64,000 bases of DNA from Alphaproteobacteria bacterium (GCA_022827685.1 JAJEIH010000053.1:56-64055); one strand, 5' to 3'. Positions 465 to 61,242 are shown, counted from the stretch's first letter. Notes: generated by a model from the sequence alone, not told the origin. Translations and numbers: made by a program.

Positions 465-1370
465 TCAGACTTCGGCCTGCACCGCCTCGATGATCTGGAG
501 CACGCGGTCCCGGAAGGGCGCGTATTGCAGGCCGAACTCCTCCACCAGGCGGCGGTTGTCGATCAGGAAATTGCCGGAGGCGGCGCGCCCGCCCGTCTCC
601 TGCTCGAAGGAGATGTCGGCGTCCGGCAGGAACTCGCGCACCAGCGCCGCGAGATCGCCCATCGAGATGGCATGGCCGCCCGTATTGTAGATCCGGTGCT
701 GCGGGGCCTCGGCGAGCGTGACGCGCGCGAACGCCTCCGCCACATCGTCCACATGGACGGGCGCGCGCATCGCGTCGGCATGGGGGAAGCTCACCGGCTC
801 GCCGCGGGCCGGGAAGGTGACGCAGCGTACATGGTCGATGGACCCGTAGATCTTGTCGGGCCCGGTCACGTTCGCCGGCCTGATGCCGGTGATCGCCATG
901 CCGTATTTCTCCGTGTAGTCCCGCGCCTGCCACTCGTTGAAAATCTTGTGCATGGCGTACTGGTTGTCGCCGTAGCGGTGGTCGTCCTCATCCGCCGCGC
1001 GCTCGCCGAAATGGCTCTGCAGGCCGCTGACCGCAAGCGAACTCGCATAGACGGTGTGCGCGACGCCGCCGAGCCGGGCCGCCTCGAAGCAGTTGCCCAT
1101 GCCGAGAATGTCGAGCTTGAGCGCGATGCGCGGCGGCAGCTCGCCGATGAAATAGGCGAGGTTGACGAGCCGGTCGGGCTTCGTCTCCGAGACAAGCGCC
1201 ATCACCTGGTCGAACTGCGTCACGTCGCCCTTGCGCGTCTCGGCCATGTCGGCGAAATCCGCCGCCTCGGGCGCGATGTCCATTGCGACGACCTCCGCGC
1301 CCTGCGCCGCTAGCAGCGGCACCAGCCGGCGCCCGATAAAGCCGGTTCCCCCGACCACCAGAACCTTCAT
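465..1370 (-). CDS. NAD-dependent epimerase/dehydratase family protein (SDR, Rossmann GxxGxxG)
   Basis: MKVLVVGGTGFIGRRLVPLL N-terminus and an extended-SDR-like body. The ATG at 1370 is preceded by GGAGAGGA. The ORF track's upstream M at 1412 adds 14 residues with no RBS. Confidence 0.85.
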   Translation of the reverse strand: MKVLVVGGTGFIGRRLVPLLAAQGAEVVAMDIAPEAADFADMAETRKGDVTQFDQVMALVSETKPDRLVNLAYFIGELPPRIALKLDILGMGNCFEAARLGGVAHTVYASSLAVSGLQSHFGERAADEDDHRYGDNQYAMHKIFNEWQARDYTEKYGMAITGIRPANVTGPDKIYGSIDHVRCVTFPARGEPVSFPHADAMRAPVHVDDVAEAFARVTLAEAPQHRIYNTGGHAISMGDLAALVREFLPDADISFEQETGGRAASGNFLIDNRRLVEEFGLQYAPFRDRVLQIIEAVQAEV

Positions 1371-1384
1371 GTCCCGTCCTCTCC

Positions 1385-1553
1385 CGTTCGAGTCGCCCCG
1401 ATAGAAGCACATTTCGATTCAGGCTCGAAACCGTCGCCCCGGCCCCCGAGCCGGGGCCAGCGCTGCCCTTTCAGGCCGGGAGATGGACCCCGGATCTCCC
1501 CCGGATCGGGTCCGGGGCAGGCTGCTGCGCTCCGTCCGGGGTGACGATCGGAG
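1385..1553 (+). repeat. Copy B of repeat R2, between the methyltransferase stop and the epimerase start
   Basis: See 245..395. It contains the hairpin cgccccggc-ccccga-gccggggc, which probably doubles as the terminator of the upstream NHase/MTase operon. Confidence 0.65.
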
Positions 1554-1589
1554 GGACCAATGCGAGGCCTCTCCACGCCTGCGCCATCG

Positions 1590-2870
1590 TCAATGCCATG
1601 CGGTTGCAGCTTGATCCGTCTTCCGCATCAGCACGATGCGGTTGGTGTTGGTGCCCTTGCGGTTGTTGGCCACGCCCCAGCAATTCGCCGTCTTGGTGAA
1701 TTTCTGCGCGTTCACCATGACGCCCTCGACGGCGAGCGGCAGGCCGCCGGCGGCCGCCACGACATGGTCCTCCAGCAGCACCCTGCCGCCCCGCACCTCG
1801 CCCACCTCGAAGGCGAGGAAGCCACCGGGGCGGAGCGTGCGCGCGATGTCCCGGAGGCTCGCATGGACGAAGGCCCGCCAGGCTTCCGGCGTCCTGTGCG
1901 CGGCGATCGGCACCGCGTCCTGGTCGATGCCGGCGAACCAGCAGCGCAACCAGTTGTCCGTGCGGTAGTCCACCACGTCGAGGAAGGGCGGCGAGGTGAC
2001 GACAAGATCGGCGGAGCCGTCCGGCACGAAGGCGGCATTGTCGGCCGGGGCCGCGCCGAGCAGCGCCGGCGGGTGCGGCGGCGGCGCGCCCGTCGAGAGC
2101 AGCGAGCGGCTCTTGCGCAGGATGAGCGCATCCACGTCGCGCGGGGGCGGCGTCTGCCCGCGCCTGGCGTTGATGCGGCGCTGCCGGTCCGCCCCGACCG
2201 CCTGGTTGGGCGGCATCGTATAGACCGAGAAGAAGCCCGGCGAATGGCCGGTGAGGCGGTTGAGGCAGACCATGCGGAGCCATTCGTCCACCGGGTCGAG
2301 CGCGCCCGACCGCTCGCGATCGATGAACCGGGCGCGCAGCGCGGCCAGGCGGGCAAGCACGGACTCGTGGAAGAAGACGCGCAGGTCGCCCAGCAGCGGT
2401 TCTTCCGGCAGGGCGGCGGAGGGAGGGATGTCCGCCAGCCGCGCGGCGATCTCTTCGAGGGAGGGCGGCGCGAGCCGGGGGCTGAGCAGCATGGCGGAGA
2501 GCGGGTTGATGTCGGAGCCGACCGGCCGGCGGCCCATCAGCGCGGCCTGCAAGGGCGTCGTGCCGCGCCCCATGAACGGGTCGTAAACCGCGTCGCCCGG
2601 CCGGGTCAGCCGCTCGATGAAGAAGGCCGGAAGCTGCGGCTTGAAACAGGCCCGGTAGCTGACCTCATGCAACCGGCTCGCCTTCCGCTGCCCGGAGGTC
2701 CAGAATTCGTTGGTGAAGCAGGGGATGCCGTTTCGTTCGGCGATGCGGGTGGCCCGTCCCCGATGGCTGAATGCGACCAGCTTGTCGGCAAAATTGAGCG
2801 GCCTCCCTGCCGCCGGAGGTTCCGCAACGGGCTGGAAGCCGTGGTCGGCCGGAAGGGCTGCGTCTTTCAA
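1590..2870 (-). CDS. DNA methyltransferase, N6_N4-MTase family. Motif I DPFMGRGTT comes before motif IV TSPPF, and the SPPF form suggests N4-cytosine or N6-adenine specificity. Start is TTG.
   Basis: Conserved FTNEFWTSGQR, YDPFMGRGTTPLQAALMGRRPVGSDINP and LVVTSPPFLDVVDY motifs. The only start-like codon upstream of the conserved N-terminus is the TTG at 2868-2870, which overlaps the NHase-alpha TGA (gagTTGAaag). Confidence 0.7.
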   Translation of the reverse strand: MKDAALPADHGFQPVAEPPAAGRPLNFADKLVAFSHRGRATRIAERNGIPCFTNEFWTSGQRKASRLHEVSYRACFKPQLPAFFIERLTRPGDAVYDPFMGRGTTPLQAALMGRRPVGSDINPLSAMLLSPRLAPPSLEEIAARLADIPPSAALPEEPLLGDLRVFFHESVLARLAALRARFIDRERSGALDPVDEWLRMVCLNRLTGHSPGFFSVYTMPPNQAVGADRQRRINARRGQTPPPRDVDALILRKSRSLLSTGAPPPHPPALLGAAPADNAAFVPDGSADLVVTSPPFLDVVDYRTDNWLRCWFAGIDQDAVPIAAHRTPEAWRAFVHASLRDIARTLRPGGFLAFEVGEVRGGRVLLEDHVVAAAGGLPLAVEGVMVNAQKFTKTANCWGVANNRKGTNTNRIVLMRKTDQAATAWH

Positions 2871-3499
2871 CTCTCGCCGGGCGCCCGCGCAGGGGCGGTG
2901 CCGATGAGGGCGTCTCGGGTGACGAGGGCGGCCAGTGCGTCCTCGTCCATGTCGTCGGTGCCTTCCGGGCGGCGCGGCAGCACGATGTAGCGGAGGTCGG
3001 CCGTGCTGTCGTGGACGCGGACTTCCACACCGTCGGGCAGCTCCGTGCCGAACTCCGCCAATACGGCGCGCGGCTCGCGGACGACGCGCGCGCGGTAGGC
3101 CTTCTTCTTGTACCAGGCGGGCGGCAGGCCCAGCACCATGCGCGGATAGCAGGAGCAGAGCGTGCAGACGATGACATTGTGGACATCGCCGGTGTTCTCG
3201 ACCACGCGCACGGTCGGGCTGTGCTCCAGCTCGAAGCCTTCCTCCGCCAGCAGGCCCGCCGCGTCCTCCAGCAGCCGGGCCTTGTAGGCCGGGTCGATCC
3301 AGGCGCGGGCGACGAGGCGCGCGCCGTTCGCCGGCGTCAGGCTGTCCATCGCCTCGATCCGGCGCTGGATGGCGGCGGCGTCGAGAATGCCCTTCTCGAT
3401 CAGCAGCTCGCGGATCGCGCGCTCCAGCGGCTCGTAACCGCTCGACGGGTCGTCAGCGGCAGGCGGGTGGCGATGAGAGTGGACGTGCGGGTCGTTCAT
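2867..3499 (-). CDS. Nitrile hydratase alpha subunit, cobalt type
   Basis: Near-complete alignment to characterised Co-NHase alpha. The metal-binding VCTLCSCYP motif has Thr (Co-type) rather than Ser (Fe-type). Also LGLPPAWYKKKAYRARVVREPR and YIVLPRRPEGTDDMDEDALAALVTRDALIG. GGAGGA RBS sits 7 nt upstream; the ATG overlaps the upstream gene's TGA (ATGA). Confidence 0.9.
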   Translation of the reverse strand: MNDPHVHSHRHPPAADDPSSGYEPLERAIRELLIEKGILDAAAIQRRIEAMDSLTPANGARLVARAWIDPAYKARLLEDAAGLLAEEGFELEHSPTVRVVENTGDVHNVIVCTLCSCYPRMVLGLPPAWYKKKAYRARVVREPRAVLAEFGTELPDGVEVRVHDSTADLRYIVLPRRPEGTDDMDEDALAALVTRDALIGTAPARAPGES

Positions 3500-3783
3500 G
3501 GCCTGTCCTCCAGCTGCTGGAGCCAGTGTTCGTAAATGTCCGCGTCGAGCGTGTCCGCCGGCCCGCCCGCATAGCCGTCCCAGAGGTCGGCCTGCCGGAA
3601 CCGCACCTGGTAGAGCGCCAGCGGCGGGTCGCCCGGCCGGAAATAGGCGAGCGCCTCGGGGTTCGGGAAGCGGCCGAGACAGGCCGTCACCACGCCCTCG
3701 CGGCCCTTGAGATAGCCGGGCACGCGGTGATGGCCGGCATGGAAGCGGTCGTCCACCCTGACCTTGGTGCCGTTCTCGATCAC
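3496..3783 (-). CDS. Small subunit homologous to the C-terminal domain of nitrile hydratase beta (ToyK- or SCNase-alpha-like). Start is GTG.
   Basis: VIENGTKVRVDDRFHAGHHRVPGYLKGREGVVTA...LYQVRFRQADLWDGYAGGPADTLDADIYEHWLQ matches the NHase-beta C-terminal SH3-like domain (GH.R.P.Y.RGK.G.V, LY.V.F...ELWG). AAGGAGG sits 10 nt upstream of the GTG. The GTGA overlaps the upstream gene's stop. The rest of the long ORF 3496..4272 is Arg/Gly-rich junk. Confidence 0.65.
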   Translation of the reverse strand: MIENGTKVRVDDRFHAGHHRVPGYLKGREGVVTACLGRFPNPEALAYFRPGDPPLALYQVRFRQADLWDGYAGGPADTLDADIYEHWLQQLEDRP

Positions 3784-4079
3784 GGGCCGCGCCCTCCTTC
3801 TTCGCCGGCAAGATGCGCCTCGATGTCGGCGCGGTCCAGAATGCCGAGCTCCTCCAGCGCGGCCCGGAGCGCCTGAAGCCGCCGGTCGTACCAGGCCGCG
3901 CCTTCCGACATATCCTGGCGGAGCGCCTCCATCGTCCGGCGGTGCGCCTCGACAAGCTCCGCCTCGCCGCTGTCCGCGAGCAGGGACAGCAGCGCCTCCA
4001 CCCGCCGCTCGTAGAGCGTCGGCTGGCGCGGCTCCGCCGCCGCGTCGATCCCGGCATGATCGTGCATGGGACCGAACAT
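3780..4079 (-). CDS. Small subunit homologous to the N-terminal domain of nitrile hydratase beta (ToyL- or SCNase-beta-like)
   Basis: MFGPMHDHAGIDAAAEPRQPTLYERRVEALLSLL...AAWYDRRLQALRAALEELGILDRADIEAHL shows distant but collinear similarity to the NHase-beta N-terminal helical domain (MNGVHD.GG...EP.F...WE..AFA...YY.HWI....L...G.I...EL). It ends with the TGA that overlaps the next gene's GTG start. An alternative ATG lies at 4067. Confidence 0.55.
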   Translation of the reverse strand: MFGPMHDHAGIDAAAEPRQPTLYERRVEALLSLLADSGEAELVEAHRRTMEALRQDMSEGAAWYDRRLQALRAALEELGILDRADIEAHLAGEEGGRGP

Positions 4080-4150
4080 AGCCGCACCTATGCGCCCGGA
4101 ACAGACTGTGCAAGACTCGGTCCTCGCGCGTATTTCGAGGAGGGAAGCCG

Positions 4151-5044
4151 ATGTCCGAGCGCCGCACCACACGCCTGAAACGCCTCGTGCAGGCGCCCGA
4201 AATCCTGGTCGCGCCGGGGGTCGTGGACGGCATCGGCGCGCGGCTGGTGGCGAAGGCCGGCTTCGATGCCATCTACATGACGGGCGCGGGCGCGACGGCA
4301 AGCCGGCTCGGCATGCCGGATGTCGGCCTGCTGACCATGACCGAGATGGCGGACAATGCCGGGCGCATCGCCGACGCCTCCGGCCTGCCGCTGGTGGCGG
4401 ACGCCGACACGGGCTATGGCGGCCCGGTGAATGTGCGCCGCACGGTGCAGGCCTATGAGCGCGCGGGCGTGGCGGGGCTGCATATCGAGGACCAGTCCTG
4501 GCCCAAGCGCTGCGGGCACCTGGCCGGCAAGACGGTGATCCCGAAGGCCGAAATGGTCGCGAAGATCATGGCGGCGTGCGACGCGCGCATCGACCCCGAC
4601 TTCCAGGTCATCGCGCGCTGCGACGCCATCGCGGTGGAAGGCTGGGAGCCGGCCATCGAGCGCGTGGAGGCCTATCAGGAAGCCGGCGCGGACATTCTCT
4701 TCGTCGAGGCGATGACCACGATGGAGCAGCTCGCCTTCGCGCCGAAGCATTTCCGCGCGCCGTGCCTGTTCAACATGGCCGGCAGCGGCAAGACGCCGGA
4801 CCTTTCGGCTGCGGAGATGGAAGCGCTCGGCTACGGCATCGCGATCTTCCCCGGCATCACGATCTCGGCGGCGATCCCCGCCATGACGCGCGCGCTCGAG
4901 ACGCTGCGGGAAACCGGCGACGTGCGCCCGATGCGCAACGAGTTCACGCCCTTCCGGGAGTATTTCGACCTGATGGGCATGGCCGAGGTGCAGGCGCTGG
5001 AGGACCGCTACGCGGTCGATGACGCCGCCCGCGTCGGCTATTGA
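4151..5044 (+). CDS. Isocitrate lyase / PEP mutase family enzyme (methylisocitrate-lyase or dimethylmalate-lyase-like, or oxaloacetate decarboxylase)
   Basis: Full-length match to the ICL/PEPM (beta/alpha)8 family: GAGATASRLGMPDVGLLT, DADTGYGG, HIEDQ..PKRCGH, ARCDA, AGADILFVEA. Confidence 0.85.
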   Translation: MSERRTTRLKRLVQAPEILVAPGVVDGIGARLVAKAGFDAIYMTGAGATASRLGMPDVGLLTMTEMADNAGRIADASGLPLVADADTGYGGPVNVRRTVQAYERAGVAGLHIEDQSWPKRCGHLAGKTVIPKAEMVAKIMAACDARIDPDFQVIARCDAIAVEGWEPAIERVEAYQEAGADILFVEAMTTMEQLAFAPKHFRAPCLFNMAGSGKTPDLSAAEMEALGYGIAIFPGITISAAIPAMTRALETLRETGDVRPMRNEFTPFREYFDLMGMAEVQALEDRYAVDDAARVGY

Positions 5045-5057
5045 GGATACAGCGCCC

Positions 5058-6452
5058 ATGCCAGCCACGATGTTCGACAAGATCTGGGACGCCCACGCGA
5101 TCCTGGAGCGCGAGGGCAACACCCTCCTGCATGTCGCCTTCCACCTCTGCCATGACGGCTCGGCCGGCGGCTTCGCCAATCTGAAGCAGCGCGGCCTCAA
5201 GGTGCGCCGGCCGGACCGCATGGCCGGCACGCCCGACCACTATGTGCCGACCACCAGCCGGCGCATCGAGGACCTCGCCACCGAGGACATGAGGCGCATC
5301 TTCCGCGTCTTCGGCGAGAACTTCACGGCCAACGGGATCACGCATTTCCCGGTGGAGGACGCGCGCCAGGGCATCATCCATGTCGTGGGCCCGGAGCAGG
5401 GCTTCACGCAGCCGGGGCTGGTGATCGTCTGCGGCGACAGCCACACCTCGACGCATGGCGCGGTCGGCGCCATCGCCTTCGGCATCGGCTCCTCGGAGGT
5501 CGCCCATGTCATGGCGACGCAGGCGCTCTGGCAGAAGCGGCCGAAGACCATGCGCATCACCGTCAACGGCGAGCGGCCCTTCGGCGTCACCGGCAAGGAC
5601 GCGATCCTGGCCATCATCGCCCATATCGGCGCCGTCGGCGGCACGGGCTACGCCGTGGAATATGCGGGCTCGCTCATCCGCGCCTTCTCGATGGAGGAGC
5701 GGCTCACGGTCTGCAACATGTCGATCGAGGCGGGCGCGCGCTGCGGCATGATCGCGCCGGACGACAAGACCTTCGACTACCTGAAGGGCCGGCCGTTCGC
5801 GCCCGCCGGCGCCGAATGGGACAAGGCCGTCGCCCACTGGCGGGGCCTGCCGTCGGACCCCGGCGCCGCCTTCGACCGCGAGGAGGCGCTGGACGGGGCC
5901 GCGCTCGCGCCGATGGTGACCTGGGGCACGAGCCCGGAGAACGCCGTCGCGGTGACGGACCGGGTGCCCGACCCGTCAAACGAGCCGGACGAAGAGCGCC
6001 GCGCCGCGCTGGAGGGCGCCATCGACTATATGGGCCTCGCCGCCGGGCAGGCGATCACGGATATCGAGGTGGACCGGGTGTTCATCGGGTCCTGCACCAA
6101 CAGCCGCATCGAGGATCTGCGCGCCGCCGCGAAGGTGGTGGAGGGGCGCCGGATCAGGGTCGGCCACGCCTTCGTCTCCCCCGGTTCCGGCCTCATCAAG
6201 AAACAGGCCGAGGAAGAGGGCCTCGACCGCATCTTCACCGAGGCGGGCTTCGAGTGGCGGGAGAGCGCGTGTTCGATGTGCGTCGGCATGAACGGCGACA
6301 TTGCGCGCCCCGGCGAGCGCACCGCGTCCACCTCCAACCGCAATTTCCGCGGGCGGCAGGGTCCGGGCGTGCGCACCCATCTGGTGAGCCCGGCCATGGC
6401 GGCCGCGGCGGCGGTCAGCGGCCGGTTCGCCGATGTGCGCGAATTCGGCTGA
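5058..6452 (+). CDS. 3-isopropylmalate dehydratase / aconitase-family large subunit (LeuC-like)
   Basis: Aconitase-family motifs VCGDSHTSTHGA, NMSIEAG, GSCTNSRIEDL and ACSMCVGMN. The ATG at 5058 is preceded by GAGGA. Confidence 0.85.
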   Translation: MPATMFDKIWDAHAILEREGNTLLHVAFHLCHDGSAGGFANLKQRGLKVRRPDRMAGTPDHYVPTTSRRIEDLATEDMRRIFRVFGENFTANGITHFPVEDARQGIIHVVGPEQGFTQPGLVIVCGDSHTSTHGAVGAIAFGIGSSEVAHVMATQALWQKRPKTMRITVNGERPFGVTGKDAILAIIAHIGAVGGTGYAVEYAGSLIRAFSMEERLTVCNMSIEAGARCGMIAPDDKTFDYLKGRPFAPAGAEWDKAVAHWRGLPSDPGAAFDREEALDGAALAPMVTWGTSPENAVAVTDRVPDPSNEPDEERRAALEGAIDYMGLAAGQAITDIEVDRVFIGSCTNSRIEDLRAAAKVVEGRRIRVGHAFVSPGSGLIKKQAEEEGLDRIFTEAGFEWRESACSMCVGMNGDIARPGERTASTSNRNFRGRQGPGVRTHLVSPAMAAAAAVSGRFADVREFG

Positions 6453-6468
6453 GCGGAGGACGAGGCAG

Positions 6469-7089
6469 ATGGAACCCTTCAAGACTTTCTCCGCCGTCGC
6501 CGCGCCGCTCGACATGCTGAATGTCGATACCGACCAGGTGATCCCCGCGCGCTTCCTCAGCCGCCCGCTGGACGAGCGCTACGGCACCTATCTCTTCCAC
6601 GACCTGCGCTTCGACGCCGACGGCAACGAGAAGCCGGATTTCGTGATGAACCGGGAGGGCTTCCGGGGGGCGCAGGTGCTGGTCGCCGACCGGAATTTCG
6701 GCTGTGGCTCCTCGCGCGAGAACGCGGTGACGGCGCTTGCCGCGGCCGGCTTCAGGGCGGTCATCGCGCCGTCCTTCGGCGACATCTTCTACAGCAACTC
6801 GCTGAAGAACGGCTTCCTGCCGATCCGCCTCGCCGACGAGACCTGCCGGCGGCTGCGCGAGATGCTGCATGAGGGGCCGGGCGGCGAGGTCACGGTCGAT
6901 CTGGAGAGCCAGACCGTCACCGCGCCCGACCAGTCCACCTGGAGCTTCGAGATCGACCCGTTCCAGAAGAACAAGGTGCTGCAGGGGCTCGACGACATCG
7001 ACTTCACCATGCAGTACCTCGGCGAGATCGAGGCCTTCGAGAAGGACTACGACGCCCGCATGACCTGGGTCACGACCCGTCCGGGCTAA
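6469..7089 (+). CDS. 3-isopropylmalate dehydratase / aconitase-family small subunit (LeuD-like)
   Basis: Aconitase C-terminal swivel domain (DTDQVIPARFL, NFGCGSSRE.A). It follows the LeuC-like gene after 16 nt. Confidence 0.85.
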   Translation: MEPFKTFSAVAAPLDMLNVDTDQVIPARFLSRPLDERYGTYLFHDLRFDADGNEKPDFVMNREGFRGAQVLVADRNFGCGSSRENAVTALAAAGFRAVIAPSFGDIFYSNSLKNGFLPIRLADETCRRLREMLHEGPGGEVTVDLESQTVTAPDQSTWSFEIDPFQKNKVLQGLDDIDFTMQYLGEIEAFEKDYDARMTWVTTRPG

Positions 7090-8297
7090 GCCCGCCGCCG
7101 TTCCGCCAGCGCGACGCCGGCCCCGATAAGCTGCTCGATCTCCGCTGCGGCGTAGCCGGCTTCGGCCAGCACCTCGCGGGTGGCGTTGCCGAAGAAGGGC
7201 GGGGCGGCGCGCACGCTGCCGGGTGTGCGCGAGAGCTTGGCGGCGATGCCGGGCGCCTCCCACTCGTCGCCTTCCACCGACGCGCGCATGCCCCGGTGCA
7301 GCGTGTGCGGGTGGGTGAAGACTTCGGGGATGGCGTTGACGGGCCCCGCCGGGACGCCCTGGCGCAGCAGCGTCTCGCAGAGCGCGTCGCACTCGAAATC
7401 CGCAAGCTTCGCCTCCAGCAGCGGCTTGAGTTCGGCGCGGTTGCGCGAGCGGGAGGCGTTGTCCGCAAAGCGCGCATCCTCCGCCAGATCGCCCGCGCCG
7501 ATGGCGTTGCAGAAGCGCGCCCACTGGCCGTTGTTGCCGATGGCGAGGAAGGCCTGCTTGTCGCGCGTGCGGAAGGCGTCATAGGGGTAGATGTTGGGGT
7601 GCGCATTGCCGGTGATCGCCGGCGCCCTGCCGGACATGAGCCAGTTCGGCGCCTGGGGGTGCAGCAGGGCGACGGCGCAGTCGTAGAGCGTGAGGTCGAG
7701 GAACTGGCCGCGCCCGGAGCGCTCGCGTTCGAGCAGCGCCATGAGGATGGCGATGACGGCGTTCAGGCCGGTGCCCATATCGACCATCGGCGTGCCGACG
7801 CGCACGGGTCCGCTCTCGGGCGAGCCGTTGACGCTCATCATGCCGGACATCGCCTGTATCACGGCGTCGTAGCCGGGGAAGCCGCCGAGCGGCCCGTCGG
7901 CGCCGAATCCCGTGATCCGGCAATGCACCAGCCTGGGGAAGCGCCGGCTCAGCACCTCCTCGTAGCCGAGGCCCCATTTCTCCAGCGTGCCGGGCTTGAA
8001 GTTCTCGGCGATGACGTCCGCGCCCTCCAGCAGGCGCATCAGCACCGCCTTGCCCTCGTCCTTCGACAGGTCGAGGCCGATGGAGCGCTTGTTGCGGTTG
8101 ACGCCCTGGAAATAGGCGGCCTCGCCGTCGGCGCGGAAGGGCGGCCCCCAGTCCCGCGTCTCGTCGCCCTGCGGCGGCTCGACCTTGATGACCTCGGCGC
8201 CGTGGTCGGCGAGGATCATGGTGCAGTAGGGGCCGCCGAGCACCCGCGTGCAGTCGATTACGCGATAGCCGGCGAGCGCGCCTCCGGAATGCGGCAT
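7086..8297 (-). CDS. Family III CoA-transferase (CaiB/BaiF/Frc family)
   Basis: RVIDCTRVLGGPYCTMILADHGAEVIKVEPP N-terminus and family-III signature throughout. The ATG at 8297 has GAGGAG 11 nt upstream. Its stop overlaps the convergent LeuD-like gene's stop by 4 nt. Confidence 0.85.
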   Translation of the reverse strand: MPHSGGALAGYRVIDCTRVLGGPYCTMILADHGAEVIKVEPPQGDETRDWGPPFRADGEAAYFQGVNRNKRSIGLDLSKDEGKAVLMRLLEGADVIAENFKPGTLEKWGLGYEEVLSRRFPRLVHCRITGFGADGPLGGFPGYDAVIQAMSGMMSVNGSPESGPVRVGTPMVDMGTGLNAVIAILMALLERERSGRGQFLDLTLYDCAVALLHPQAPNWLMSGRAPAITGNAHPNIYPYDAFRTRDKQAFLAIGNNGQWARFCNAIGAGDLAEDARFADNASRSRNRAELKPLLEAKLADFECDALCETLLRQGVPAGPVNAIPEVFTHPHTLHRGMRASVEGDEWEAPGIAAKLSRTPGSVRAAPPFFGNATREVLAEAGYAAAEIEQLIGAGVALAERRRA

Positions 8298-9767: not shown

Positions 9768-10905
9768 CGGAAAGCCCGTGTCCGAGTCCACCGCAGGGCC
9801 GCTGGCGGCGTGGCGCGCGCAGGTCGCGGCGAAGGCGCTGAGCGGCGACCCCGACCAGGAAATCTGCGCGCGGGCGCTCCAGGACCTGCATGACGCCCTG
9901 GGGGCCTTCGCCGCCGCCGGCAGGACGGGCGGGCTTCTGGCCCGGCTCGGCCTCGCGCGCCGGAGCGAGCCGGCGGCGGAGGCGCCGAAGGGCATCTACA
10001 TCCACGGGGCGGTCGGGCGCGGCAAGTCCATGCTGATGGACCTCTTCTTCGAGACCGCGCCGGTCGTTCGTAAGCGCCGGGTGCATTTCCACGCCTTCAT
10101 GACCGGAGTGCATGACCGCGCCCACCGGATGCGGAAGCGCGCCGGCGATCCGATTCCGGGCCTCGCCGCGGCCATCGCGGAAGAGGCGGCCCTGCTCTGC
10201 TTCGACGAGTTCCAGGTGGACAATATCGCCGATGCGATGATCCTCGGCCGCCTGTTCGAAGCGCTGCTGGCGCGGGGCGTGGTCGTGGTCGCAACGTCCA
10301 ACACCCCGCCGGCGGACCTCTACCGCAACGGCCTGCAGCGCGAGCGCTTCCTGCCCTTCATCGACATATTGCAGCAGCGCCTGCGCGTGCTCGAACTGGC
10401 CGGAGAGGGGGACCACCGGCTGGCGCGTCTGAGAGGGCGGCAGGTCTATCACGCGCCGCTCGACGCCGGGGCGGCCGCCGAACTCGACCGGGCGTTCCGC
10501 GACCTCACGGACCTGGAGCGGGGCGCGCCGGATACCGTGTCGGTCCGGGGGCGCGAGGTCGCCGTGCCGGAAGCCGCGCGCGGCGTGGCGCGCTTCCATT
10601 TCGACGACCTTTGCCGCCAGCCGCTCGGCGCCGGCGACTATCTGGCGCTGGCCGGGCGGTTCCACACATTCATCCTCGCCGGCGTGCCGGCGATGCGCCC
10701 GGAAGACCGCAACGAGGCGCGGCGCTTCATCAACCTGATCGACGCGCTTTACGAGGCGCGTTGCAACCTCGTGCTGTCGGCCGCGGCCGGCCCCGACAGG
10801 CTCTATCCCCTGGGCCTCGGAGCCGACATATTTCGCCGCACGACATCGCGCTTGATCGAAATGCAGGCGGAGGACTATATCGCGCGCCGCCATCTGGCTG
10901 CCTGA
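9700..10905 (+). CDS. zapE: ZapE/AFG1-family ATPase (cell division protein ZapE)
   Basis: Walker A GAVGRGKSMLMD, Walker B LLCFDEF, and AFG1-family body. The start is uncertain: the ATG at 9700 overlaps the upstream gene by 68 nt, and a GTG at 9778 is an alternative. Confidence 0.75.
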   Translation: MSRSTRRTRPSPSGARWNAPSLDGKPVSESTAGPLAAWRAQVAAKALSGDPDQEICARALQDLHDALGAFAAAGRTGGLLARLGLARRSEPAAEAPKGIYIHGAVGRGKSMLMDLFFETAPVVRKRRVHFHAFMTGVHDRAHRMRKRAGDPIPGLAAAIAEEAALLCFDEFQVDNIADAMILGRLFEALLARGVVVVATSNTPPADLYRNGLQRERFLPFIDILQQRLRVLELAGEGDHRLARLRGRQVYHAPLDAGAAAELDRAFRDLTDLERGAPDTVSVRGREVAVPEAARGVARFHFDDLCRQPLGAGDYLALAGRFHTFILAGVPAMRPEDRNEARRFINLIDALYEARCNLVLSAAAGPDRLYPLGLGADIFRRTTSRLIEMQAEDYIARRHLAA

Positions 10906-10947
10906 ACCGCGCGCGCCCTGTCGCCGTCCTCCCCGCGAGGTGCCCTC

Positions 10948-12216
10948 ATGCCCGCTTATCTGGGGCCTATCCTGCCGATTCTGGCAGCGGCGGCGTTGCT
11001 GCAACTGGGCAATGGGCTGCTCGCCACCCTTATCGGCGTGCGGCTGGAAGGCGCCGGCTTCGCCGCGTCCGTGACCGGGCTGGTGACCACGGCCTACTTC
11101 GCCGGGCAGCTTGCCGGGTCCAGCCTGTCCGGCGGCGTCATCAACCGCGTCGGCCACATTCGCGCCTTCGCCAGCTTTGCGACGGTGCTCTCGGCGGCGG
11201 CGCTGATCTACGCGCTCGCCGGCGGGCCGTTCGTCTGGTCCGCGGTGCGGTTCGCCAACGGCTTTGCGATGGCGGGCGTGCTGCTGGCGATGGAGAGCTG
11301 GCTCAACCATGTCTCCGGCAACGCCAGGCGGGGCTCCGCGCTCTCGACCTACATGGCGGTGTGCTATGCGGCCCTCAGCGTCGGGCCGCTGCTGATGATG
11401 GTCGAGGAGCCGGAGGGGTTCGCGCTGTTCAGCATCGCTTCGATACTGATGGGCCTGTCGCTGCTTCCGATGTCGCTCTCGAACCGGGCGCAGCCCGGCG
11501 TCGCCCAGCCCTCGCGGCTGCGCTTCCGGGACCTCGTGCGCATCTCGCCGCTCGGGATTGCGGGCGCCGTGCTGGCCGGGGCGATGATTGCGCCCCTGGT
11601 CGGCCTGAGTTCGGTCTATGCGGTATCCGCCGGCCACGGCGTTTCCGGCGCGGCGGCGTTCTGGCTGGCCCTGATCGGCGGCGGGTTCGCGCTTTCCTTC
11701 CCCATCGGCCGGCTCTCGGACCGCATTGAGCGGCGTCTCGTGCTGGCGGGCATCTGCTTCGCGGCGCTTGCGGCCGTGCTCCTGTTCCGGGTCATCGGCG
11801 ACGGTTCGCTCGAGGTGTTGATGGTCTTCGGGGCTGTATTCGGCGGCCTTGTCTTCGCCGCCTATCCGCTCGCGGCGGCCCATACCAACGACCATCTTCC
11901 GCCGGAAGACAGCGTGCCGGCAGCGGCCGGGCTGCTGATCGCCTTCGGCGCGGGCGCGGTTGCGGGGCCGCCGGTCGCGGCGCTTGCCATGGACCTTGCC
12001 GGTCCCGGGGCGCTGTTCGACAGCGTGGCCGCGATCGCCGCCGGGCTCGGCGCGTTCGCGCTCTACCGGCGCTCCCGCCGGGCGGACGTCGATGAGGCCG
12101 ACAAGGGCGCCTTCGTCGTGCTGCCGCGAACGAGCCCTGCCGCCTATGAAATGGACCCCTGGTCAGGCGATGCATCCGCTGGCGAGCCGCTTGTCGGAGG
12201 CGACGAAAGCCAGTAG
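10948..12216 (+). CDS. MFS transporter
   Basis: 12-TM profile and MFS-like loops. No substrate can be inferred. Confidence 0.7.
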   Translation: MPAYLGPILPILAAAALLQLGNGLLATLIGVRLEGAGFAASVTGLVTTAYFAGQLAGSSLSGGVINRVGHIRAFASFATVLSAAALIYALAGGPFVWSAVRFANGFAMAGVLLAMESWLNHVSGNARRGSALSTYMAVCYAALSVGPLLMMVEEPEGFALFSIASILMGLSLLPMSLSNRAQPGVAQPSRLRFRDLVRISPLGIAGAVLAGAMIAPLVGLSSVYAVSAGHGVSGAAAFWLALIGGGFALSFPIGRLSDRIERRLVLAGICFAALAAVLLFRVIGDGSLEVLMVFGAVFGGLVFAAYPLAAAHTNDHLPPEDSVPAAAGLLIAFGAGAVAGPPVAALAMDLAGPGALFDSVAAIAAGLGAFALYRRSRRADVDEADKGAFVVLPRTSPAAYEMDPWSGDASAGEPLVGGDESQ

Positions 12217-13224
<1,008 letters not shown>

Positions 13225-59544: not shown

Positions 59545-61242
59545 ATGGCTTATGCGATCCCCCGCCGCGACTATGCGGACATGTTCGGGCCGACTGTGGG
59601 CGACCGGGTACGCCTTGCCGACACCGAGCTGTTCATCGAGGTCGAGCGCGACTTCACCGCCTATGGCGACGAGGTGAAATTCGGCGGCGGGAAGGTCATT
59701 CGCGACGGCATGGGCCAGTCCCAGGCGACGCGGGCCGAGGGCGCGGCCGACACGGTGGTGACCAACGCGCTGATCCTCGATCACTGGGGAGTCGTCAAGG
59801 CCGATATCGGCATCCGCGACGGGCGCATCCTGGCCGTCGGCAAGGCGGGGAACCCCGACATCCAGGACGGCGTGGACATCGTCATCGGACCCGGCACCGA
59901 GATCGTCGCCGGCGAGGGCAAGATCGTCACCGCCGGCGGCTTCGACTGCCATATCCATTTCATCTGCCCGCAGCAGATCGAGGAGGCGCTGGCCTCCGGC
60001 ATCACGACGATGATGGGCGGCGGCACCGGCCCCGCCACCGGCACCAACGCCACCACCTGCACGCCGGGCCCCTGGCACCTGCAGAGGATGATCGAGGCCG
60101 CCGACGGCTTCGCCATGAATCTCGGTTTCGCCGGCAAGGGCAATGCAAGCCTGCCGGCCGCGCTGGAGGAGCAGGTGCAGGCCGGCGCCTGCGCGCTCAA
60201 GCTCCACGAGGACTGGGGCACGACGCCGGCCGCCATCGACACCTGCCTCGGCGTTGCCGATGCGATGGACGTCCAAGTGATGATCCACACCGACACGCTC
60301 AACGAGTCCGGCTTCGTCGAACACACTGTCGCCGCCTTCAAGGGCCGCACGATCCACGCCTTCCACACCGAAGGAGCGGGCGGCGGCCATGCGCCGGACA
60401 TCATCAAGGTCTGCGGGCTCGACAATGTGATCCCGTCCTCGACCAACCCGACGCGCCCCTACACGGTCAACACAGTCGATGAGCATCTCGACATGCTCAT
60501 GGTCTGCCACCATCTGGACCCGCGCATCGCCGAGGACGTGGCCTTCGCCGAGAGCCGCATCCGCAAGGAGACCATCGCAGCCGAGGACATCCTGCACGAC
60601 ATGGGGGCGTTCTCGATCATCGCGTCGGACAGCCAGGCGATGGGCCGGGTCGGCGAGGTCCCGATCCGCACATGGCAGACGGCCGACAAGATGAAGCGCC
60701 AGTTCGGCCGGCTTGAGGGCGAGAGCGGCGAAAACGACAATCTGCGCGCCCGGCGCTATATCGCCAAATACACCATCAACCCCGCCATAGCGCACGGCAT
60801 GGCGGACCATATCGGCTCGATCGAGGCCGGCAAGCTGGCCGACCTCGTCGTCTGGTCTCCGGCTTTCTTCGGCGTGAAACCGGACCTGGTGGTGAAGGGG
60901 GGCATGATCGCAGCCGCCGTCATGGGAGACCCCAACGCCTCCATCCCGACGCCGCAGCCGGAGCATTTCCGGCCGATGTTCGCAGGCTTCGGGCGGGCGC
61001 GGCCGGCAACCTCCGTCACCTTCGTCAGCGAGGCCGGGCTCGATGCGGGTTTCGACACCGCCCGGCGGCTGGAGCCCGTTCGCCGCACGAGAACCATCGG
61101 AAAGGGGGACATGATGTTGAACGACCTCATGCCCGATATCGAAGTCGATCCCGAAACCTACGAGGTGCGCGCGGGCGGCGCGCTGCTCACCTGCGAGCCG
61201 GCGGAAGTGCTGTCCATGGCGCAGCGCTACTTCCTGTTCTAG
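59545..61242 (+). CDS. ureC: Urease subunit alpha
   Basis: Nickel-centre residues (HIHFICPQ, carbamylated-Lys context [26 protein letters not shown]). Confidence 0.95.

Follow-up and report, generated by a model that had tools for sequence, protein, structure and literature searches.

Introduction

In two-subunit nitrile hydratases (NHases) of the cobalt type, the beta subunit is one chain of ~220 aa, and in alpha subunits a C(T/S)LCSC metal motif with Thr and Tyr (VCTLCSCY) is typical of cobalt rather than Fe enzymes. Two described relatives are instead built of three polypeptides. Toyocamycin nitrile hydratase, ToyJKL of Streptomyces rimosus, acts on a 7-cyano-7-deazapurine and assembles as an (alpha-beta-gamma)2 hexamer, while in thiocyanate hydrolase (SCNase; ScnB/ScnA/ScnC of Thiobacillus thioparus, PDB 2DD4) the beta and alpha subunits correspond to the N- and C-terminal halves of NHase beta respectively. 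Here we analyse a 64,000-nt stretch of DNA from an Alphaproteobacteria bacterium (hereafter, the window), in which minus-strand genes for the two beta domains (betaN and betaC), an NHase alpha subunit and an N6_N4-family DNA methyltransferase (the methylase) follow one another in that order, and which a sequence-only reading had speculated to be an operon coupling nitrile chemistry to DNA modification. The comparative evidence leads us to conclude, with a probability of about 0.85, that these are two unrelated modules lying head to tail and that their juxtaposition is incidental.

Organization of the locus and translation signals

The operon and its flanks are laid out as follows (positions are those of the window).

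465..1412, epimerase ORF (the scaffold gene call starts at 1370)
1413..1589, spacer between the methylase and the epimerase ORF, where nothing comparable to the restriction-enzyme gene or low-GC insert of sister genomes remains
1590..2870, minus strand, methylase: solitary Type II amino-methyltransferase of the N6_N4 family, 426 aa, 46.5 kDa
2867..3499, minus strand, alpha: Co-type NHase alpha with the motif VCTLCSCYP, 210 aa, 23.1 kDa
3496..3783, minus strand, betaC: stand-alone homologue of the C-terminal domain of NHase beta, 95 aa, 10.8 kDa
3780..4079, minus strand, betaN: stand-alone homologue of the N-terminal domain of NHase beta, 99 aa, 10.9 kDa
4080..4150, divergent intergenic region between betaN and the lyase-like gene, 71 bp by coordinates
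4151..5044, plus strand, divergent from the NHase: gene of the PEP-mutase/isocitrate-lyase family (lyase-like), 297 aa, PF13714 at E 1e-46
5058..7089, plus strand, LeuC-like (464 aa) and LeuD-like (206 aa) subunits of an aconitase-family hydratase, by Pfam Aconitase and Aconitase_C/LeuD

The four ORFs and three 4-nt stop/start overlaps described earlier (GTGA between betaN and betaC, ATGA between betaC and alpha, TTGA between alpha and the methylase) are all present, and an identical metagenome scaffold, gene-called independently, carries the same four genes of 99, 95, 210 and 426 aa. Translation of betaN may instead begin at the second ATG (4067; 95 aa), as in most homologues. The betaC GTG is preceded 9 nt upstream by AAGGAGG, with a predicted anti-Shine-Dalgarno (anti-SD) pairing of −12.2 kcal/mol, and the alpha ATG 6 nt upstream by GGAGGA (−9.3 kcal/mol), in comparison with merely −4.0 kcal/mol at the methylase TTG, a weak SD. 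This TTG, at 2870, is nonetheless the only usable methylase start, as had been claimed: no other canonical start (ATG, GTG or TTG) lies 5′ of the conserved core, and the next in-frame ones, a TTG at codon 67 and an ATG at codon 100, both fall within invariant sequence. The TTGA overlap consists of the last base of alpha plus the alpha stop codon, and it is no special feature, since relatives whose methylase start lies 22, 33 or 1170 nt beyond also have an alpha ending in xxT-TGA. Putative promoters of both divergent operons presumably lie within 4080..4150. Our consensus scan of positions 1200–4400 for promoters and terminators returned no promoter; of terminator-like sites it gave two where 1.1 were expected, and both fall within the methylase ORF.

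A cobalt-type nitrile hydratase of three polypeptides

We found that alpha matches NHase_alpha (PF02979) with an E-value of 1.2e-80 and passes the NHase-alpha model TIGR01323 (262.6 bits; cut-off 249.85) but fails the thiocyanate-hydrolase gamma model TIGR03887 (208.4 bits; cut-off 291.45). Its closest solved relatives are Co-type NHase alphas (E 4.5e-68) and its translation contains VCTLCSCYP, bearing out its earlier assignment as a Co-type NHase alpha, with putative nitrile-to-amide activity. As also noted before, no separate NHase accessory, activator or metallochaperone gene is seen at the locus.

Both beta domains are recognisable. BetaC matches NHase_beta_C (E 2e-20) and aligns to residues 134–217 of the Co-NHase beta chains 3QXE/3QYG, including GHxR(x)PxY, its GHHRVPGY standing opposite the GHTRMPRY of the solved beta. 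As a single sequence betaN matches Pfam NHase_beta_N only at E 0.0018, which is under the Pfam cut-off, and a PDB search with that single sequence gave matches to apolipoprotein and Noc that we consider due to chance, so that a profile was needed instead. The betaN family profile matches Co-type NHase beta over residues 2–97 (E 5e-12) and SCNase beta (E 5.8e-9), PF21006 is matched by 23 of 25 family members, and the FRHSIERM of solved beta chains, including that of 3QXE, lies opposite the near-invariant R47/R48 region in the alignment. The two beta segments whose Arg residues contact the oxidised cysteines thus both appear, from these alignments, to be represented in betaN and betaC. We considered betaN as a possible NHase activator and rejected this, since the accessory model fits family members much less well than does the beta model (7.3e-5 versus 1.2e-18): 24 of the 25 match the beta model, 16 also match the accessory-protein model TIGR03889 weakly (best E 7e-5), and the betaN of the window matches the beta model only.

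Ordinary NHases having a single beta chain, the two halves might be one beta gene that was frameshifted, pseudogenised or broken by an assembly error, a case that the sequence-only reading had itself raised. We examined this in related loci found by a pattern scan with the betaC alignment; for betaN, a word-indexed homologue search reached the close clade only and an exhaustive profile search ~30 representative clusters. Separate betaN and betaC ORFs occur in 46 of 56 related loci and a fused gene in none, and every one of the 46 loci with both halves is split, each half having a separate start, with an SD where the two join. Moreover, the split is present in independent assemblies, and both halves are under purifying selection (dN/dS 0.25–0.35 for betaN and 0.12–0.25 for betaC). 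We therefore give next to no credence to an error; the division of beta into two ~11-kDa polypeptides is genuine. Three-polypeptide NHases are in fact common in soil and aquatic metagenomes, where the gene order is always betaN-betaC-alpha.

A solitary methylase of a restriction-modification family

Identification of the last gene as an N6_N4 DNA methylase was upheld by its matches to PF01555 (E 1e-13) and, over residues 27–417, to PADLOC MTase_II PDLC03325 (E 2.1e-160). Motif I (FMGRGTT, at about residues 99–105) and motif IV (SPPF, 293–296) are both invariant in the family alignment, and the family profile matches the N4C/N6A methylases TTHA0409, N4CMT, M.PvuII and CcrM, with permuted motif order. 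The SPPF motif and the top PDB matches suggest that the enzyme is an N4-cytosine (m4C) methylase. Its invariant residues are intact, with dN/dS of 0.13–0.21. The closest plasmid homologue, from Sulfitobacter and 42% identical, adjoins IS66.

Orthologues occur at a minimum of 598 genome loci. Among the best 80, a homologue of PADLOC REase_II (E 5.7e-25) lies immediately downstream of the methylase in eight, one of them in the sister genome L003, which also bears the NHase and where the restriction-enzyme (REase) gene is fragmented. A tblastn search with the REase homologue found none in the window. Given a restriction-modification (R-M) family some of whose members elsewhere adjoin an REase that is missing here, we take the window copy to be a solitary R-M-family methylase. 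The L003 methylase has a dS of 0.93, compared with 0.26–0.28 in its flanks, indicating an independent history. The fragmented REase gene of L003 occupies the position of the methylase/epimerase spacer of the window, where another sister genome, L002, has 1.6 kb of low-GC DNA, as judged by GC profile and ORFs. A 28-nt GC-rich element at 1431–1458, single-copy in the window, recurs in L002.

Linkage of nitrile hydratase and methylase across genomes

According to the sequence-only reading, the NHase and the methylase form one system, in which hydration of a nitrile-bearing base or nucleoside, such as preQ0 or a toyocamycin-like compound, is tied to DNA modification through stoichiometric co-expression. 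The four genes do overlap from stop to start with no other usable start for the methylase, and the NHase has the architecture of an enzyme acting on a 7-cyano-7-deazapurine. The directly abutting form, moreover, is found in at least three genomes, those of the window, L140 and L141 (the last with a different downstream context), whose methylases are 81–85% identical to that of the window, so the arrangement has been stable for some time. However, of the best 80 methylase loci, 77, drawn from five or more phyla, are without an NHase within 10 kb. Split-beta NHase operons that are more distant, with alpha subunits 77% and 70% identical, keep the divergent lyase and LeuCD genes but carry no methylase. 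In metagenomes, 28 NHase loci extend far enough downstream to be informative, and just two of these have the methylase, both from the close clade. A methylase behind the NHase is thus restricted to one narrow clade. Within it, alpha is invariably followed by the methylase in the same orientation, yet the distance from alpha stop to methylase start takes values of −4, −4, −4 (or +14), +22, +33, +920, +1170 and +2729 nt, the larger gaps being filled by low-GC ORFs and an IS1380 transposase. Close relatives therefore carry 0.9–2.7 kb of foreign DNA between an NHase and a methylase that are both intact.

Further evidence speaks against a shared chemistry. Over the stretch for which genes were called, from the start of the window to ~24.5 kb, we found no genes for preQ0 synthesis, QueC/QueD/QueE, TGT or Dpd, and no Pfam domain of a Dpd-type 7-deazaguanine DNA modification system occurs in a called gene up to ~20 kb away from the operon; the neighbours belong rather to the TCA cycle. 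The weak SD before the methylase argues against stoichiometric co-expression. The lack of conserved linkage and the REase neighbours of a standard Type II R-M family are the two findings that the sequence-only reading had itself named as telling against functional coupling, which is left unsupported, as is the proposed conversion of a nitrile-bearing base for DNA modification. We regard a single system of this kind as very improbable. Had it been real, such a link between an enzyme for nitrile-bearing bases and DNA modification would have represented a novel type of system.

Co-transcription of the two modules in the window is likely, which makes some regulatory dependence of the methylase on the NHase promoter possible. 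Abutting methylases could then have become dependent on that promoter, so that methylation follows induction of the nitrile pathway, as a side-effect or a switch, with no chemistry in common. In favour of this, the window and L140 leave neither a start codon nor promoter room between alpha and the methylase, which is itself under purifying selection, and the abutting form has outlasted the divergence of these methylases; a promoter may nonetheless lie inside alpha, and separate arrangements suffice in relatives. We consider such regulatory capture unlikely.

Conserved neighbours of the nitrile hydratase

The lyase-like gene adjoins the NHase in ten related loci, L140 and L141 included. It scores 282 bits with the prpB model, which is under the cut-off of that model, and among solved structures it is closest to 2,3-dimethylmalate lyase (E 1.9e-64). 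The LeuCD-like genes, in the same divergent operon, are kept with the NHase in four of these loci, from closer relatives (L082, L084, L140 and L141). Other called neighbours are a CoA-transferase and the TCA-cycle genes mdh, sucCDAB and lpd. For distant split-beta NHases (alpha 50–63% identical), clustering of neighbours gave no consistent partner, the clusters being dominated by spurious high-GC ORFs. The conserved lyase-like partner, together with the LeuCD-like genes of closer relatives, suggests small-acid catabolism and not nucleic-acid chemistry, and provides a lead to the NHase substrate.

Discussion

The preferred reading is of two incidentally juxtaposed modules. The analysis shows what the genes are, that beta is split, how the linkage is distributed phylogenetically, that REases adjoin some orthologous methylases and that purifying selection acts, whereas the stoichiometry of the complex, its substrate, the base that is methylated and the way the genes are expressed are inferred. 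The first module is a three-polypeptide cobalt NHase of betaN, betaC and alpha, translationally coupled via GTGA and ATGA with good SD sites. By analogy with toyocamycin nitrile hydratase, it would assemble as (alpha-betaN-betaC)n and hydrate a small-molecule nitrile to its amide. The second is a solitary Type II DNA amino-methyltransferase, probably the remainder of an R-M cassette that inserted behind alpha in the common ancestor of a single genus-level clade and whose REase was later lost. In the window, low-level expression of the methylase probably results from read-through and re-initiation, the TTG used overlapping the alpha stop by chance. Sitting less easily with this two-module reading are the recurrence of the abutting form in three or more genomes, the purifying selection on the methylase and the probable co-transcription.

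A more speculative extension, which we think improbable, is that in the window and L140 capture of the methylase by the NHase operon yields a metabolite-linked epigenetic state and, separately, that the NHase with the lyase (and LeuCD) may mark an undescribed nitrile-to-organic-acid pathway. As it stands, the locus is an example of a stop/start overlap arising by accident as an R-M remnant settles behind an operon, and tight gene overlap by itself is no proof of functional coupling. The NHase is of a known but little-studied type, and both modules are ordinary.

Comparison with known systems

Comparison with Type II N6_N4 methylases (M.PvuII, TTHA0409) reveals the FxGxG SAM-binding and SPPF catalytic motifs in the window methylase, but with motif I before motif IV and ~190 residues between them, the reverse of solved beta-class enzymes. 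Unlike the methylases of Type II R-M systems, it is solitary, without an REase and without a start or SD of its own. With two-subunit Co-type NHases (3QXE, 2DPP) the locus shares a highly similar alpha (E 1e-62 to 1e-68) containing CTLCSC, as well as both beta domains with their Arg segments, these being encoded here by two ORFs. Thiocyanate hydrolase has three subunits, as here, and its alpha is matched by betaC (E 0.0013), but its subunits, whose solved chains have 157, 126 and 243 residues, are larger, and the window alpha passes the model for NHase alpha and not that for thiocyanate hydrolase gamma.

The split architecture equals that of ToyJKL, in line with the earlier reading, which had named both thiocyanate hydrolase and ToyJKL as precedents: ToyJKL likewise comprises three polypeptides with the same Pfam domains (alpha PF02979, gamma PF02211, beta PF21006) and similar sizes (21.2, 10 and 11.4 kDa, versus 23.1, 10.8 and 10.9 kDa here). 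ToyJKL has no solved structure, and the likeness is one of domain set and subunit sizes. The genomic settings differ, ToyJKL being encoded in a 7-deazapurine biosynthetic cluster (toyA-M) whereas the window operon lies beside lyase-like, LeuCD-like and TCA-cycle genes. No such three-polypeptide NHase besides ToyJKL appears to have been characterised, and the present data reveal that enzymes built like ToyJKL are no Streptomyces oddity.

Architecture of the four-gene run

The four overlapped minus-strand genes described in the sequence-only reading were borne out. Their ORFs and the stop/start junctions GTGA, ATGA and TTGA are present in the window sequence, and gene calling on an identical metagenome scaffold yielded exactly the same four genes. 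These agreements, together with the family matches below, therefore confirm the layout, with only two corrections: betaN has an alternative start at 4067, and the TTGA overlap has a different status (see below).

Genes of the four-gene run
4079..3780, minus strand: betaN, homologous to the N-terminal domain of nitrile hydratase (NHase) beta, 99 aa
3783..3496, minus strand: betaC, homologous to the C-terminal domain of NHase beta, 95 aa, GTG start
3499..2867, minus strand: NHase alpha, 210 aa
2870..1590, minus strand: DNA methyltransferase (methylase), 426 aa, TTG start

We consider, at a probability of about 0.85, that the run comprises two independent modules, a ToyJKL-type three-polypeptide cobalt NHase and a solitary Type II methylase. 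The first would be associated with a gene cluster for small-acid catabolism. The second would be what remains of a restriction-modification (R-M) cassette inserted downstream of alpha in the common ancestor of a single genus-level clade.

A genuinely split NHase beta

Alpha scored above the cut-off of the curated NHase-alpha model (262.6 versus 249.85 bits) and below that of the thiocyanate-hydrolase gamma model (208 versus 291 bits), contains VCTLCSCYP, and has Co-type NHase alphas as its best solved relatives. BetaC matched the C-terminal beta domain (E 2e-20), its alignment spanning residues 134–217 of Co-type beta, GHxRxPxY included. As a single sequence betaN gave a marginal domain match (E 0.0018); an exhaustive profile search gathered about 30 representative clusters of 86–145-aa relatives, PF21006 was matched by 23 of 25 relatives, and the family profile aligned with residues 2–97 of Co-type beta (E 5e-12) and with thiocyanate hydrolase beta (E 5.8e-9).

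The division of beta into two polypeptides is real. Among 56 NHase loci (50 from a betaC-alignment scan of metagenome contigs and six fetched via alpha homologues), separate ORFs in the order betaN–betaC–alpha occur in 46 and a fused betaN–betaC in none, while betaN was not found in 10. Purifying selection acts on each of the three NHase genes (dN/dS 0.10–0.35). A frameshifted single beta gene is excluded by the split and fused counts.

Some loci, mostly aquatic, carry only betaC (95 aa) and alpha (~220 aa) (L086, 5721–6663; also L087, L103, L104, L111, L116 and L121), with no betaN ORF detected even by six-frame profile search. These adjoin the lyase-like gene described below, followed in five by an alpha/beta hydrolase.

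A methylase of R-M ancestry

The methylase matched the PADLOC Type II methyltransferase model PDLC03325 over its full length (E 2.1e-160), and FxGxG (FMGRGTT) and SPPF are invariant in its family alignment. The family profile matches the solved N4C/N6A enzymes TTHA0409, N4CMT, M.PvuII and CcrM, from which the methylase differs in motif order, its motif I region preceding motif IV. From SPPF and the top solved matches, we infer N4-cytosine as the putative target. Homologues are abundant (>8000 database matches), with orthologues at no fewer than 598 loci in a one-genome-per-species collection, and those 53–65% identical occur in Alpha-, Beta- and Gammaproteobacteria, Acidobacteriota, Verrucomicrobiota, Planctomycetota, Dehalococcoidia and a Chlorobi MAG. 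The gene is intact and under purifying selection (dN/dS 0.13–0.21).

We surveyed the best 80 of the at least 598 genome loci (L001–L080), with up to 10 kb of flank each. In eight, an ORF homologous to a 234-aa protein lies directly downstream of the methylase; this protein matches the PADLOC Type II restriction enzyme model PDLC03511 (E 5.7e-25) and has a PD...EVK motif. In the NHase-bearing L003 this restriction endonuclease (REase) gene is in pieces in different frames, which may reflect decay or assembly error. The window holds no trace of an REase gene, which leaves its methylase as a solitary representative of an R-M family.

Across these 80 loci the family is mostly solitary; by holding 53–65% identity over at least five phyla it is unusually well conserved for an orphan Type II methylase. 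In 13 of the loci it is preceded, at a distance of about 27 nt, by an MBL-fold hydrolase gene.

Linkage is confined to one clade among the loci surveyed

The sequence-only reading had proposed functional coupling of the NHase to the methylase. This now appears very improbable, since two findings it had itself named as refuting were obtained: the methylase belongs to an R-M family, with an REase homologue beside some relatives, and the adjacency is not kept outside the close clade. NHase genes were absent from 77 of the best 80 methylase loci, occurring only in L001–L003, Alphaproteobacteria MAGs whose methylases are 77–86% identical to that of the window. The next-nearest alphas (77% identical in L082/L083, 70% in L084/L085) belong to betaN–betaC–alpha operons with divergent lyase-like and LeuCD-like genes, as in the window, and are followed by convergent unrelated genes with no methylase. 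At about 67–68% alpha identity there is betaC–alpha only, beside the lyase-like gene and then an alpha/beta hydrolase. Where at least 1.5 kb follows alpha, a methylase was present in 2 of 28 NHase loci, both from the close clade.

Within the clade with both modules (alpha 87–100% identical), the junction itself is variable.

Gap from alpha stop to methylase start
Window: −4 nt, TTG start
L140: −4 nt, TTG start
L141: −4 nt, or +14 nt from an in-frame ATG
L089: +22 nt
L003: +33 nt, own ATG
L088: +920 nt, two low-GC ORFs in gap
L001: +1170 nt, two low-GC ORFs in gap
L002: +2729 nt, two low-GC ORFs and an IS1380-family transposase in gap

Alpha also ends in xxT-TGA in L001, L003 and L089, where the methylase starts elsewhere, which makes the TTGA overlap a by-product of the stop codon of alpha itself. 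Against its clade relatives, the window loses DNA similarity exactly at the alpha stop codon and regains it some 45 codons inside the methylase. The two internal NHase junctions have predicted anti-SD pairing of −12.2 and −9.3 kcal/mol, and the methylase TTG has −4.0. Under the two-module reading, the window methylase would have lost its own start and ribosome-binding site, and its low-level production would probably draw on the NHase transcript; we regard it as unlikely that the NHase promoter has captured the methylase in a purely regulatory way.

The two intervening ORFs (L001, 2853–3800; L002, 9001–9996; L088), of 113–128 and 198 aa and with GC 39–57% versus about 70% in the flanks, gave no significant NCBIfam or PADLOC match, and could be accessory to the methylase cassette. 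The 198-aa ORF encodes a predicted membrane protein and overlaps the methylase start. The insertions altered the alpha 3′ end in L002 (6432–7256) and L088 (1150–1845), where the ORF continues into inserted DNA for about 70 and 26 codons, respectively, beyond its normal end. In L003, dS against the window is 0.93 for the methylase (9956–11218) and 0.26–0.28 for the flanking alpha and epimerase genes, indicating allele replacement; recombination appears to have swapped the methylase, together with the REase remnant, separately from the genes around it.

Downstream of the L002 methylase (11127–12601) comes 1.6 kb of 35–46% GC DNA with three ORFs, read by eye, of 277, 131 and 101 aa; the first includes an HNH-like CPTHHKVVDK segment and the third a nucleotidyltransferase-like DLDILVVYD segment. 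This region resembles a variable defence islet. The methylase–epimerase spacer holds a 28-nt GC-rich element (window 1431–1458, minus strand) that is single-copy in the window; an identical copy occurs in L002 (14406–14433), but past the epimerase rather than between it and the methylase. The L141 methylase has a urease operon as its immediate neighbour.

Catabolic neighbourhood

Beyond betaN lie the following genes, of which the three on the plus strand are divergent from the NHase genes.

Neighbouring genes
4151-5044, plus strand: lyase-like, PEP-mutase/ICL family
5058-6452, plus strand: LeuC-like subunit
6469-7089, plus strand: LeuD-like subunit
7086-8297, minus strand: family III CoA-transferase

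From the window start to about 24.5 kb, the called genes also comprise the epimerase, a DRL/SAF protein, AFG1, an MFS transporter, mdh, sucCDAB, lpd, GST and a Rieske oxygenase, and none has a QueC/D/E, TGT or Dpd domain. The closest solved structure to the lyase-like protein is 2,3-dimethylmalate lyase (E 1.9e-64). The lyase-like and LeuCD-like genes are kept with the split-beta NHase down to 70% alpha identity, and the lyase-like gene alone to about 67%; the pairing could signal a nitrile-to-alkylmalate catabolic route that has yet to be described. Elsewhere, the Rfam family 5_ureB_sRNA is matched over its full length at 59697–59986 (minus strand; 103.8 bits, E 3.5e-26), with a urease gene as its presumed antisense target; a scan of all 64 kb gave no tRNA gene.

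Comparison with known systems

Both modules belong to known kinds, and their pairing is itself of low interest; of modest interest is the widespread, uncharacterised split-beta NHase family with its conserved lyase-like neighbour. Toyocamycin nitrile hydratase (ToyJKL), whose three subunits are described as unusual among NHases (PMC12648386), is an (alpha-beta-gamma)2 hexamer of 21.2-, 10- and 11.4-kDa subunits (PMC8574189) with domains PF02979, PF21006 and PF02211 (bioRxiv 10.64898/2026.04.15.718813). The likeness to this architecture put forward earlier holds by described domains and masses: the domain set corresponds, and the calculated masses in the window are 23.1 (alpha), 10.8 (betaC) and 10.9 kDa (betaN).
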